The notes under the pieces were generated by a model. The model was not told where the DNA came from, did no database searches, and was given only the letters and a program-made list of their open reading frames with translations. DNA of 64,000 nt from a plasmid. Location: the sequence record NZ_CP142098.1, one strand, 5' to 3'. Both the position numbers and the translations under genes were made by a program. Shown piece by piece: positions 9,019 to 12,921 of the stretch (its first letter is position 1; each line of letters opens with the position of its first letter).

Positions 9019-9031
9019 GTAAGCGTCACAT

Positions 9032-9736
9032 TTGAACCGCCTGTCAGAGAGGCCCGCTTTCCCTGAAAATAATGTCCATCATCTGTTTAATGGACATTAT
9101 TTTATGAGTGAACGGGCATGGTTGTTTGAGGTCTTTCGTCTTCACTATCAGGAACAGCTGTCTCAGAACCGCATCGCCAAACAGCTGGGGCTACCCAGGT
9201 CAACAGTCAACAGCTGTTTCCAGCGCGCTATCAAGGCCGGTGTTCGTTGGCCCGTCAACGAACTGACGCTGGAACGCACCCTTTATCCCGGTAAAAAACG
9301 GTCACGCTCCTCAGCATCACCGCCGCTACAAACACCGATAACGGCCGTGCCATCAAAACCCAAAAGAAGGGGACGCAGACCCAACTTCCCGCTGGCGTTC
9401 AAGCTGGCGCTGGTTGAACAATCAATGCAGCCTGGCGTCAGTACCGCCAGGCTGGCGCGCGAGCATGGCATCAACGACAACCTGTTGTTCAACTGGCGCA
9501 ACCTTTACAAGCAGGGGCGCCTCGGCACGCCTCTTCCCGCTGAGCACTGCCTGTTGCCGGTGGAACTGGAAGATATGCCATCATCACCGCCTATAACTGA
9601 AGCAGATAAAACACCACCCTCCGATGCCGCGGAATGTGAACTGGTGCTGCCTGCCGGCACGTTACGGCTCCGGGGTGCACTCAGTCCTGCCTTGCTGAGC
9701 ATGTTGATCCACGAGTTGAAAGGAACGCGCCGATGA
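9032..9736 (+). CDS. tnpA: IS66-family accessory protein TnpA (Orf1, HTH) with an unusually long N-terminal extension
   Basis: C-terminal half ...FPLAFKLALVEQSMQPGVSTARLAREHGINDNLLFNWRNLYKQG is the IS66 Orf1/IS3-OrfA-type HTH; the true start is uncertain. Confidence 0.6.
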   Translation: MNRLSERPAFPENNVHHLFNGHYFMSERAWLFEVFRLHYQEQLSQNRIAKQLGLPRSTVNSCFQRAIKAGVRWPVNELTLERTLYPGKKRSRSSASPPLQTPITAVPSKPKRRGRRPNFPLAFKLALVEQSMQPGVSTARLAREHGINDNLLFNWRNLYKQGRLGTPLPAEHCLLPVELEDMPSSPPITEADKTPPSDAAECELVLPAGTLRLRGALSPALLSMLIHELKGTRR

Positions 9737-10080
9737 TGTCGCTGCCGGCGGGCAGTCGCATCTGGATCGTGGCCGGCATCACCGACATGCGTAACGGTTT
9801 TAACGGGCTGGCTTCACGGGTTCAAAATACTCTGCGTGACAATCCCTTCTCGGGCCAGGCCTTCATCTTCCGAGGGCGCCGCGGCGATATGATTAAAGTG
9901 CTGTGGGCCGACGCAGATGGCCTGTGCCTGTTCACCAAACGCCTGGAGCGCGGTCGCTTCGTCTGGCCGGCGGCGAGAAACGGCAAAATTCATCTGACAC
10001 CGGCCCAGCTGGCGATGCTGTTGGAAGGCATCAACTGGAAACACCCGCAACGGATGGAACGGCCTGGCCTGAGGATATAA
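9733..10080 (+). CDS. tnpB: IS66-family TnpB (Orf2)
   Basis: 115 aa; IWIVAGITDMRNGFNGLASRVQ...FIFRGRRGDMIKVLWADADGLCLFTKRLE is the conserved IS66 Orf2 signature; 4-nt overlap with tnpA. Confidence 0.85.
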   Translation: MMSLPAGSRIWIVAGITDMRNGFNGLASRVQNTLRDNPFSGQAFIFRGRRGDMIKVLWADADGLCLFTKRLERGRFVWPAARNGKIHLTPAQLAMLLEGINWKHPQRMERPGLRI

Positions 10081-10099
10081 CCTGTTGTAAGGTAGGGGT

Positions 10100-11665
10100 A
10101 TGGTTGCTTCCTACCCCGATGAAAACGCCCGACTCCGGGCGCAGCTGCTGGAGCAGCAAAACACGCTTCGACAAATGGCGGAGTACAATCGCCTGCTCTC
10201 GCAACGGGTGGCGGCGTATGCCAGCGAAATCAACCGGCTGAAAGTCCTGGTTGCCAAACTGCAACGCATGCAGTTCGGCAAGAGCTCCGAAAAGCTGCGG
10301 GAAAAAACGCAGCGCCAGCTACGCGAAGCGGAAGAACACATCAACGCCCTGCAGGAAGAGCTGGCTGAGACGCTGGGCGAACAGCATGATCCGGCGTTGC
10401 CGCAGCCGTTACGGCAGTCCTCTGCTCGCAAGCCCTTGCCAGCTAGCATACCGCGCGAAACACGCGTGCTCCCTCCGCAAGAAAGTACCTGCCCGGCGTG
10501 TGGCGGCGGCCTCAGCCTGCTCGGGTGCGATATCTCGGAACAACTGGAGCTCATCAGCAGCGCCTTCAAGGTCATCGAAACGCAGCGGCCAAAGCTGAGC
10601 TGTTGCCGGTGCGACACCATCGTGCAATCGCCGATGCCCTCAAAACCTCTCGAGCGCAGCTACGCCGGTCCCGGCTTACTGGCGCGCATCGTCACGGCGA
10701 AGTTCGCCGAACACACGCCGCACTACCGCCAGTCGGAAATCTACCGTCGACAGGGTGTGGAGCTGAGTCGGGCCACGCTCGGGCGCTGGTCTGGCGCGGT
10801 GAGTGAACTGCTGGAGCCGCTGTATGAGCTGTTGCGGGAGTATGTGCTGATGCCGGGCAAGGTGCATACCGACGACATCCCGGTGCCGGTCCAGGCGCCG
10901 GGGAGTGGCAAGACCCGCACCGGCCGTCTGTGGGTATACGTGCGTGATGATCGCAACGCGGGCTCGGTGATGCCGCCGGCGGTGTGGTTCGCGTACTCAC
11001 CGGACCGCAAGGGCATCCATCCGCAGCAGCACCTGGCCGGGTACAGCGGTATCCTGCAGGCCGATGCGTATGGGGGCTACAACGCACTGTATGAGAACGG
11101 GCGCATCACGGAAGCCGCCTGCATGGCGCATGCGCGGCGAAAAATCCACGATGTTCATGTCCGCACACCGACCGACATCACCACGGAAGCGCTGAGACGC
11201 ATCGGTGAGCTGTACGCCATCGAAGCCGAGATACGCGGCAGCCCTGCGGAGAAGCGGCTGTCGGTCAGAAAAGCGAAGACGGTGCCGCGGATGCAATCGC
11301 TGTACGACTGGATCCAGATACAGATGAAAACGCTGTCACGCCACGCGGAGATGGCGAAGGCGTTCGCTTATCTGCTGAAACAGTGGAATGCGTTGACTCT
11401 CTACTGCGAGAAAGGCTGGGCGGAAATCGACAACAATATCGCAGAGAACGCCCTGCGCGGTGTCGCGCTGGGGCGAAAAAACTGGTTGTTCGCCGGGTCA
11501 GATGCAGGCGGAGAACGTGCTGCGATACTGTACTCGCTGATCGGCACGTGCAAACTCAACGGCGTGGAGCCGGAAGCGTGGCTGCGCTACGTCATCGGAC
11601 ATATCCAGGACTGGCCGGTAAACCGAGTCCGCGATCTGCTGCCATGGAAGGTCGATATCATTTAA
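10100..11665 (+). CDS. tnpC: IS66-family transposase TnpC (521 aa)
   Basis: N-terminal coiled-coil/leucine-rich region, CPACGG zinc-finger motif, and size typical of IS66 Orf3. Confidence 0.85.
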
Positions 11666-11880
11666 TATTGAGCGCCTGTACGACCTGTATGTAGCTCTTA
11701 TAAAAATAACATCACTAATTAAATTATAAAGTTGGTGTTATTGCATAAGTTTAGATATATCACGTCCTGTGAGCCCTCTCACAAACGTAACCTTTATACA
11801 AGGAGTACGACGCCGTCGTAATCTTACTTCGTCAATTACTGGCTCATTTAAACGGGCTCAACTTACGAAGAGAGGTTCCA

Positions 11881-12819
11881 ATGTCATATCCACAAACGAA
11901 ACTATCTGGTCTGACTGGTTTTGCTAAAGCGGCCAACGTTACAGGGGGGTGGTCAGGTTCAGTGGTGAGTATTACCACGCTAGATCAACTTAAAGAAAAT
12001 ATCGCTGACAACACACCGCGAGTCTTGGTGATCGACAGAAACATTTCCGCACCAACCCTCACAAAAGTTCCGTTAGGCGCCAACAAAACCCTGGTTGGCT
12101 CCTTTCAAAGTCGTACGCTGAATAACATTCATCTGCGTGCCACGGCGAGCTCGCAAAATATCATATTTCAGAACTTGGTATTTCAGCACTCACAAAGCAT
12201 CAAGGATAATGATGATATTCAATTATACCTGAACTACGGTAGTAAGTATTGGGTCGACCATTGTTCGTTTGTGGGGCATAGTTGGTCATCAAATGATGGA
12301 AGTCTGGATAAGCTTCTATATGTTGGTGATAAAGCGGATTATGCAACCATTAGTAACTGCTTGTTTTCAAACCACAAATACGGTCTAATCCTCGGCCATC
12401 CGGCGGACGACAATAACACCGCCTATAACGGCTTCCCTCACCTGACACTATGCCACAACCATTTCGAAAACATGGAGGTCCGTGCACCTGGCCTGATGCG
12501 TTACGGTTATTTTCACGTTTATAACAACTATATTAACCATTTCCACCTTGGTTTTACGCTGGCGCAAAACGCCAATATCCTTTCCGAGAACAACTATTTT
12601 GGTGCGGGTAGCGAGAACAACGGCATGTTGGATGACAAAGCCAACGGTACTTTTACTGATACAGGCAGCGTTCCCGCCATCACAAATCAGAAATCGCCAA
12701 AAGCGAATTGGACAGCGTCGTCCAATTACAGCTACACCCTTAAAACCGCCGTGCAGGCGAAAGCCTTTGCCACCACTAACGCCGGAGCACAGTCTGCTTC
12801 GCTGGTATTTGGAGGATAA
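11881..12819 (+). CDS. pectate lyase-like (PelC/PL1-type) protein without an evident signal peptide; passenger gene inside the IS
   Basis: YWVDHCSF (vWiDH motif) and RAPGLMRYGYFHVYNNY (RxPxxRxGxxHxxNN motif) of pectate lyase C-type right-handed beta-helix enzymes; low-GC segment; N-terminus MSYPQTKLSGLTG is not hydrophobic. Confidence 0.65.
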   Translation: MSYPQTKLSGLTGFAKAANVTGGWSGSVVSITTLDQLKENIADNTPRVLVIDRNISAPTLTKVPLGANKTLVGSFQSRTLNNIHLRATASSQNIIFQNLVFQHSQSIKDNDDIQLYLNYGSKYWVDHCSFVGHSWSSNDGSLDKLLYVGDKADYATISNCLFSNHKYGLILGHPADDNNTAYNGFPHLTLCHNHFENMEVRAPGLMRYGYFHVYNNYINHFHLGFTLAQNANILSENNYFGAGSENNGMLDDKANGTFTDTGSVPAITNQKSPKANWTASSNYSYTLKTAVQAKAFATTNAGAQSASLVFGG

Positions 12820-12921
12820 TCAGGTAGTGACGTAAATTTATAAAAAAGGTTCCGGAGGGGGATTTGTCTCCTCTCCGGAGCATTATAGTAAGCATCAATA
12901 CGGTCTGCATGTGACGCTTAC

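Follow-up and report, generated by a model that had tools for sequence, protein, structure and literature searches.

We analysed a 64,000-nucleotide stretch of a plasmid (sequence record NZ_CP142098.1; hereafter the window) and found in it a 3,903-bp member of the IS66 family of insertion sequences (IS). The element is very probably an active 'transporter IS' (tIS66), in which a captured 1.2-kb chromosomal segment, holding the gene for a Pnl-type pectin lyase (pnl), lies between the transposase gene tnpC and the functional right inverted repeat (IRR). Features, relatives and other copies are listed in Table 1.

The ends of the element are sharply defined. The left inverted repeat (IRL), GTAAGCGTCACAT, begins with the GTAAGCG that is characteristic of IS66 elements, is common to the Serratia relatives, and recurs as its exact reverse complement at 12909-12921 (13 bp, no mismatch); the IS66 members quoted in PMC12888890 start GTAAGCGTCC. 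When the window was scanned with the 13-mer end pattern, allowing up to two mismatches, one chance site (two mismatches) was found besides the two ends. The element is flanked by an 8-bp target-site duplication (TSD), TCTTGGGG, of the size expected for the family. Perfect 13-bp terminal repeats, an 8-bp direct repeat at the flanks and a length of 3.9 kb, some 1.2 kb over that of typical members, had all been predicted from the sequence of the window, and all were borne out; the closest passenger-less relatives in PLSDB, IS66 copies on Serratia plasmids (L001 and L002), measure 2,683-2,684 bp.

Inside the ends, the element has the IS66 module of tnpA, tnpB and a DDE transposase gene, all three intact and recognized by Pfam as well as by the NCBIfam models IS66_access_TnpA and transpos_IS66 above their cutoffs. 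TnpC additionally has the zf-IS66, LZ_Tnp_IS66 and DDE_Tnp_IS66_C domains of Pfam. TnpA is of a long form, with HTH_Tnp_1 at residues 91-145 and a further helix-turn-helix (HTH) at residues 9-47. This N-terminal extension had been noted before as unusual and about 100 residues long; it is indeed present, but spans about 90 residues and is not unusual, since the protein covers all 190 profile positions of the curated NCBIfam equivalog NF038385 (186 bits, cutoff 150) and the passenger-less Serratia relatives share the long form. Long TnpA is a known, curated subtype.

The site as it was before insertion could be found. Joining 8628-9018 to 12930-13096, that is, removing the element and one copy of the TSD, gives a 558-nt open reading frame (ORF) of 185 codons and a stop. 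The empty site is carried by the Serratia marcescens plasmid p14BL03_1 (AP028474.1), which is 99.9% identical to the joined flanks along 725 bp: it has a single TCTTGGGG, and the product of its annotated coding sequence is identical to the reconstructed 185-residue protein.

We traced other copies by exact-protein look-ups of the lyase and of its variants more than 90% identical to it, and mapped the ends in every locus; in PLSDB, coverage of the element stays below 80% in every plasmid record and a 550-bp fragment reaching from the end of tnpC into pnl (described below) was all that turned up, and the full copies came from the protein look-ups. The full IRL-tnpABC-lyase-IRR unit was found in at least 10 other contexts, on plasmids and chromosomes of Serratia, which answers a check proposed beforehand, namely whether other copies bear the same passenger. 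At five sites, the window's included, the outer ends are bracketed by a perfect 8-bp TSD of the site's own, four of them (CAACGATC, AACTCAAT, GATTCATT and TTTCGAAC) being additional to that of the window. Because distinct perfect 8-bp TSDs flank the whole unit at five sites, the lyase gene transposes with the IS as one piece. The element thus has what defines a transporter IS: a gene unrelated to transposition that lies between the inverted repeats and moves with them. A further copy (L043) has a duplication matching at 7 of 8 positions. Copies 99.6-99.9% identical occur in at least seven contexts and, together with the empty site, they indicate that the element is currently active. One contig (L056, 1-3904) consists of the element alone in 3,904 bp, as expected of a collapsed repeat that is multi-copy in the sample. 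We also considered that all TSD-flanked copies might go back to one ancestral site through co-transferred flanks; this is excluded for the five sites, as their flanks are wholly different.

Table 1. The IS66-family element of the window, its interrupted target gene, and related loci. Positions refer to the window unless a locus (L number) or accession is given.
Feature	Position or locus	Strand	Evidence or remark
Tandem-HTH (XRE-type) regulator gene, 5' part, codons 1-130	8628..9018	+	Intact gene in AP028474.1
Left TSD copy, TCTTGGGG	9011..9018	.	Single copy in empty site
Left terminal inverted repeat	9019..9039	+	13 bp perfect at 9019-9031; 17/21 positions match when extended to 21; same end in Serratia relatives
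tnpA, 210 residues, long form with extra N-terminal HTH	9104..9736	+	Pfam HTH_Tnp_1, HTH_23/Sigma70_r4; NCBIfam NF038385, 186 bits
tnpB, 115 residues	9733..10080	+	Pfam TnpB_IS66, 2e-38
tnpC, 521 residues, DDE transposase	10100..11665	+	Pfam DDE_Tnp_IS66, 4e-101; NCBIfam transpos_IS66, 456 bits
Inner, diverged copy of an IS66 right end, not used as transposon end	11668..11701	+	21/34 against outer end; position where relatives have IRR
Captured passenger segment	11702..12887	+	GC step; 11750-12862 homologous to native pnl locus
pnl, 312-residue PL1-family lyase, Pnl pectin lyase orthologue group, no signal peptide	11881..12819	+	Pfam PF00544 (Pectate_lyase_4), 5e-61
Genuine IS66 right end, 34 bp, with IRR at 12909-12921	12888..12921	+	26-27/34 against right ends of L001 and L002; bounds every TSD-flanked copy
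Right TSD copy, TCTTGGGG	12922..12929	.	Sequence
Tandem-HTH regulator gene, 3' part, codons 131-185 and stop	12930..13096	+	Joined-flank reconstruction
Passenger-less relatives	NZ_CP018916.1, 64,205-66,888; AP028507.1, 86,097-88,779		92.9-94.9% identical over 9019-11650
Copies with TSD TCTTGGGG	Window, L025, L026		3,903 bp in window and L025 (L025 100% identical); L026 3,876 bp, 99.1%
Copies with TSD CAACGATC	L027-L030, IncFII plasmid		3,874 bp, 91.3% identical
Copies with TSD AACTCAAT	L044, L045, L047		3,903 bp, 99.8%
Copies with TSD GATTCATT	L048, L049, ICE-like (integrative and conjugative element)		3,922 bp, 95.0%
Copy with TSD TTTCGAAC	L050		3,903 bp, 99.7%
LexA boxes of native Pseudomonas pnl loci	L004 5858-5873; L005 5869-5884; L006 and L007 5934-5949; L020 5905-5920		Start of pnl at 6001 in all five

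Some of our results weigh against the reading of the element as an active transporter of a pectin lyase gene that is of use to its host. Three contexts (site C, L033-40/57-61; L053; L054) have no TSD, which points to some copies having arrived, or having been rearranged, by recombination rather than by simple insertion. Public annotation, the Pfam family name and the best matches in the PDB all call the cargo a pectate lyase. When the region ahead of pnl was scanned with the consensus, no sigma-70-like promoter was detected, and no LexA box (CTGT-N8-ACAG) was found in the window, in the IS-borne copies or in the nearest native pnl locus, that of a soil metagenome-assembled genome (MAG; L003), so that a LexA signal for induction by DNA damage is missing. 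Lastly, pnl gave a dS of 0.09-0.11 and a ratio of non-synonymous to synonymous divergence (dN/dS) of 0.11-0.17 among the transposed copies, but the counts behind these ratios are small (24-31 substitutions per pair), making them supportive rather than conclusive.

We next consider what the cargo is. Its nearest counterparts are chromosomal proteins of a MAG and of the Pseudomonas fluorescens group, with 78-89% identity to Pnl of the element (78-85% for Pseudomonas). Identity is 78-79% to a protein of Erwinia persicina and, over 99-100% of the length, 62-64% to the 'pectin lyase' of Pectobacterium and Dickeya, including UniProt Q02726; Pnl of the element is, thus, their full-length orthologue. 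The core motifs of PL1 enzymes (W124-x-D126-H127, R201-x-P203-G-L-M-R207-Y-G and H212-x-x-N215-N216) are invariant across the orthologues and also align with the structure 7bbv, as expected of a PL1 domain. The proteobacterial orthologues start MSYP or MAYP and have no signal peptide, in contrast to the Gram-positive homologues, which have one. Native pnl loci are chromosomal and free of IS. NCBIfam has no model for the lyase, hence the absence of a curated name. Close homologues, 55-73% identical (P0041, P0047, P0059, P0063, P0066, P0080), are also annotated in insect assemblies, those of the gall midges Contarinia nasturtii and Sitodiplosis mosellana, the fungus gnat Bradysia odoriphaga and the bee Ceratina calcarata; these reflect either horizontal transfer or bacterial contamination of the assemblies.

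On the strength of orthology, from which its substrate preference is deduced, we file the cargo as a Pnl-type pectin lyase rather than as a generic pectate lyase. Like its orthologues in Pectobacterium and Pseudomonas, it most likely acts on methyl-esterified pectin, which it would cleave by beta-elimination. A pectate-lyase-like gene between tnpC and the right inverted repeat had been predicted, and its position stands, while the generic label gives way to membership of the Pnl orthologue group. That the cargo is instead a Ca2+-dependent pectate lyase, acting on de-esterified polygalacturonate, is rather unlikely. Its NCBI product names and Pfam family name would suit such an enzyme, the closest solved structures (7bbv at 6e-19, and 7xks) are pectate lyases, and an acidic D-G-S-L-D motif, aligned with D-G-L-L-D of 7bbv, is retained. 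However, the full-length orthology with the Pectobacterium (Q02726) and Dickeya pectin lyases, the 78% identity to the P. fluorescens 'pectin lyase' and the absence of a signal peptide, shared with those pectin lyases, argue otherwise, and PMC7843439 lists Pnl as the pectin lyase of Pectobacterium.

The Pnl-type pectin lyase resembles its closest known relatives, Pnl/PnlA of Pectobacterium carotovorum (Q02726) and Pnl of the P. fluorescens/marginalis group, in its PL1 beta-helix, its length of about 312 residues, its lack of a signal peptide and its invariant motifs. It differs from them in the regulatory signals that are evident. A canonical LexA box lies 52-143 bp upstream of the gene in each of the five native Pseudomonas pnl loci, which implies direct SOS control of pectin lyase there. 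In Pectobacterium, pnl responds to DNA damage through RdgA/RdgB, according to the statement in PMC7843439 that cites Liu et al. 1994; neither signal is evident in the IS-borne pnl. No LexA box was found upstream of pnl in the Erwinia loci. Induction by DNA damage is a regulatory trait, not a criterion of the enzyme family.

The cargo has outlasted its vehicle in some copies. In copy B (the IncFII site) and copy C (a chromosomal site), tnpA and tnpC are frameshifted or deleted, and B also has a 23-bp gap in tnpB. In every copy, however, pnl is full length (312 codons), and between copies the tnp genes are 89.5-94.8% identical, versus 96.7-99.1% for pnl. The decaying tnp genes have diverged by 7-10%, in agreement with the dS of pnl. 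Because dS is similar, dN/dS is low and the frame is intact, the cargo appears to be as old as the decaying transposase genes and yet under purifying selection, which supports retention of the lyase by selection on the host. The gene has kept its own 131-bp upstream region and has the same orientation as tnpC, from which read-through transcription of pnl is possible.

The alternative, a non-functional lyase gene that hitch-hikes neutrally, has not decayed so far and brings the host no benefit, is in our estimate quite improbable. The lack of a promoter-like site would agree with it, as would the absence of obvious pectin-utilization partners from the element and the window, and the clinical origin of many of the host strains. 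The missing signal peptide might be added, although this is normal for the Pnl orthologue group. Against neutrality stand the 312-codon frame kept in copies B and C with their broken tnp genes, the low dN/dS at a dS of about 0.1, and the conservation of all PL1 core motifs.

Comparison of the copies along their length revealed a mosaic. At 10219-11418, tnpC of the window is 95-98% identical to the passenger-less L001 and 85-93% identical to copies B and C, whereas the spacer and pnl of the window are 99-100% identical to those of copy C2, a copy with a decayed transposase gene. This pattern suggests recombination among IS66 relatives, which may have restored a working transposase to the cargo module. 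We tentatively consider, as a possibility that we would not put higher than doubtful, that a selected cargo outlives its vehicle and that the active copy was re-armed by recombination with an intact passenger-less IS66 element; if true, a cycle of decay and re-arming would keep a plant-cell-wall enzyme mobile in Serratia lineages, hospital-associated ones included. The mosaic and the three contexts without TSD could also be taken to mean that the unit spread by homologous recombination between resident IS66 copies, or by co-integration of plasmids, and not by transposition at all. This is very improbable, as five different perfect 8-bp duplications lie directly at both outer ends, which recombination cannot create, and the empty site of the window copy is known. 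Recombination clearly contributes as well, but the TSDs refute the idea that it acts alone.

The passenger-less relatives reveal how the cargo may have come in. They share with the element of the window the long TnpA, the IRL and 8-bp TSDs (TCCTCCGA in one of them), but have their IRR directly after tnpC, without cargo. Their similarity to the window ends at about 11650, and their last 34 bp, IRR included, match the window at 12888-12921 in 26-27 of 34 positions. Because these terminal 34 bp are homologous, the extra DNA is bounded by tnpC on one side and by a genuine IS66 right end on the other. There is a step in GC (guanine plus cytosine) content, the IS core having 59.7%, the spacer 38.6% and the lyase gene 46.1%. 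From 11750 to 12862 the segment is 81.7% identical in nucleotide sequence to the native, IS-free chromosomal pnl locus of the soil MAG, a match that starts 131 bp ahead of the gene and continues for 43 bp beyond it.

At the position where the relatives have their IRR, the window holds a second, diverged right-end-like sequence, whose level of similarity to the outer end is reached by only 3 of the 127,932 34-mers in the window. It matches the IRL at only 9 of 13 terminal positions; its canonical CTTAC terminus is kept in copies B and C and in the L023 fragment described below. Compared with the passenger-less relatives, identity falls from ~95% to ~75% and then to ~50% within the ~85 bp that precede the passenger. 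Neutral decay would not produce so abrupt a drop, and this end of tnpC therefore probably comes from a more distant IS66 element. In the simplest model, pnl was probably trapped between the right ends of two IS66 elements, after which the intervening IS body was lost.

An inner inverted repeat near 11.7 kb had been named in the original prediction as a finding that would turn the passenger into flanking DNA. Such a sequence is there, but no copy ends at it and every TSD brackets the outer end; it probably marks a capture scar and is not the boundary of the element. That the IS ends at about 11701, with 11.7-12.9 kb being flanking DNA followed by a solo IRR, has practically nothing left to recommend it beyond the scar's distance from tnpC, which is that of the relatives' IRR, and its conserved CTTAC, given that the TSD of the window brackets the outer end, that precise excision of 9019-12929 yields a gene known in intact form from other plasmids, that the entire 3.9-kb unit is enclosed by separate 8-bp TSDs at four more sites, that the scar is a poor partner for the IRL, and that no locus was found where the element stops there. 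The inner sequence was accordingly rejected as an IS boundary on the multi-site TSD data.

The fragment mentioned above, 550 bp long and 95.6% identical, lies isolated in a fimbrial gene cluster of another S. marcescens plasmid (NZ_OY970407.1; L023, 4824-5373). It runs from the final 200 bp of tnpC through the inner end and the spacer into pnl, of which it has the first 132 bp. A GTAAGCG-like motif immediately precedes the fragment, which is what is left of another copy of the element. Further copies have peculiarities of their own. L026 (3166-7041) is a metagenome-assembled version of the insertion in the window plasmid, with a 27-bp deletion in the tnpB region that leaves a 106-residue product. 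The copy at site C (L033-L040 and L057-L061; for example CP047679.1, 4,507,615-4,522,553) is chromosomal or ICE-associated, 93.4% identical, and has broken tnpA and tnpC; in L034 it lies between two oppositely oriented genes for 74-residue GerE-type proteins, beside IS91-family transposases, and these surroundings point to a larger rearranged structure. Some insertions adjoin anti-phage defence genes, namely Thoeris ThsA/ThsB (L043, 9763-11215), CBASS-like DncV/E2/JAB (L044, 8764-11716) and SMODS/S_4TM (L053, 9592-11523), suggesting that the element lands in variable 'defence island' regions.

In the window, the insertion has disrupted a regulator gene. Pfam HTH_3 matches the reconstructed protein (6e-13) in two stretches (residues ~21-51 and 112-145), as expected of an XRE-type regulator, and the insertion point lies between G130 and V131, within the second HTH. 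A continuous two-HTH ORF had been foreseen, at 186 rather than the actual 185 residues. To call the insertion in-frame is not really meaningful: the element and one TSD together measure 3,911 bp, which is not divisible by 3; the interrupted ORF runs on to 9035 and stops 5 codons into the IS, giving a 135-residue product. Since the reconstructed gene is found intact in p14BL03_1 and in other Serratia plasmids, the regulator is truly disrupted in the window. The BLAST search proposed in advance for an uninterrupted homologue thus succeeded, where failure would have counted against the original prediction, and it also returned the intact gene in 66 further Serratia plasmids at 86-97% identity, bringing the plasmids in which it is conserved to 67. 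By exact protein look-up in public data, the intact regulator is present on 20 contigs and the 135-residue truncated product on 71; the host named by the sources is Serratia sarumanii / S. marcescens. The insertion is recent. The coexistence of intact and truncated alleles in public data offers a natural knockout for study.

The regulator gene lies directly after parM/parR, as had been stated, in the maintenance/leading region of a Serratia conjugative plasmid of the MPF_I (IncI) type. Throughout its length the window is collinear with p14BL03_1 (99.9% identity), the element being the only large insertion; the sole other structural difference is ~0.9 kb of p14BL03_1 (AP028474.1 46250-47148) that is absent from the window at ~20465. 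A GC-rich repeat of ~370 bp occurs in three copies, 95-98% identical (5597-5999, 15062-15464 and 20666-21029), with a more diverged look-alike at about 13270-13350. Each repeat ends just before the start of an ORF in the leading region, p14BL03_1 has copies too, and the IS-pnl unit, oriented like the repeats, comes after the first full repeat and before the second. This layout recalls the ssi/Frpo single-strand promoter repeats of IncI and F leading regions. The sole Rfam match in the window is a full-length PK-repBA, the pseudoknot that regulates repBA translation (63756-63879, plus strand, 88.8 bits), which fits an IncI/B/K-type replicon; the Rfam scan found no match within the element.

Taken together, comparison of the sites shows that TnpC, with the accessory proteins TnpA and TnpB, acts on the two outer GTAAGCGTCACAT ends, and that the lyase gene moves with the element, an 8-bp duplication arising at each insertion. 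In the window, the element landed in the second HTH of the regulator, leaving the truncated product. The cargo would have been trapped between two IS66 right ends, the inner of which, together with the last ~85 bp of tnpC, would stem from a more distant IS66 element and would now be ignored by the transposase. Selection on the host would retain the lyase even where the transposase genes decay.

The element is a natural example of a single IS turning a chromosomal gene into mobile cargo, here a plant-cell-wall-degrading enzyme and not a resistance gene. A donor-type locus, the passenger-less parent IS, the relic of capture, five independent insertions and the exact empty site can be viewed side by side. 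A pectinolytic function was thereby moved from Pseudomonas-like bacteria to the S. marcescens complex, on conjugative plasmids and chromosomes, a transfer that bears on the plant, insect and clinical ecology of Serratia. Such elements are missed because annotation pipelines label their parts separately, as 'IS66 family transposase' and 'pectate lyase'. In the searchable literature on Serratia, pectate or pectin lyase and IS66 we found no description of the element, a paper on Ralstonia transposable elements held nothing on IS66 passengers, and the public annotation gives no IS name; the element may already be listed under one.

In capture of the ISEcp1/IS1247 type, a gene adjoining an IS is mobilized by use of a more distant, surrogate right end. 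The element of the window differs from such systems in having a genuine IS66 right end (26-27/34 against relatives) in place of a weak surrogate, a fixed rather than variable unit length and a transposase of another family. Much closer is tIS66, a recognized class: among the 25 IS66 entries that ISfinder has for Pseudomonas, 7 include a passenger, and a detailed analysis exists for ISPa75-fosZ (PMC12888890). The left part and the IRR of ISPa75-fosZ come from different IS66 lineages, and an origin by entrapment between ends of two different IS66 elements was proposed for it (PMC12888890), as we propose here. Both elements have tnpA, tnpB and a DDE transposase gene with a single passenger downstream of it, inside the right inverted repeat, as in Pseudomonas tIS66 generally. 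Both also have GTAAGCGTC...-type ends, have inserted repeatedly, with TSDs, into plasmids and chromosomes, and carry a cargo derived from a chromosomal gene of Pseudomonas-like bacteria (PMC12888890). The element is, thus, a clean and fully reconstructed case of tIS66, the mechanism itself not being new. It is set apart by the Serratia host, the plant-polysaccharide lyase in place of a resistance gene, and the preserved capture scar. The element is also longer than ISPa75-fosZ (3.9 kb versus 3.0 kb), its diverged inner right end is still visible by tnpC, and some of its old copies, unlike those of ISPa75-fosZ, have lost the transposase and kept the cargo.

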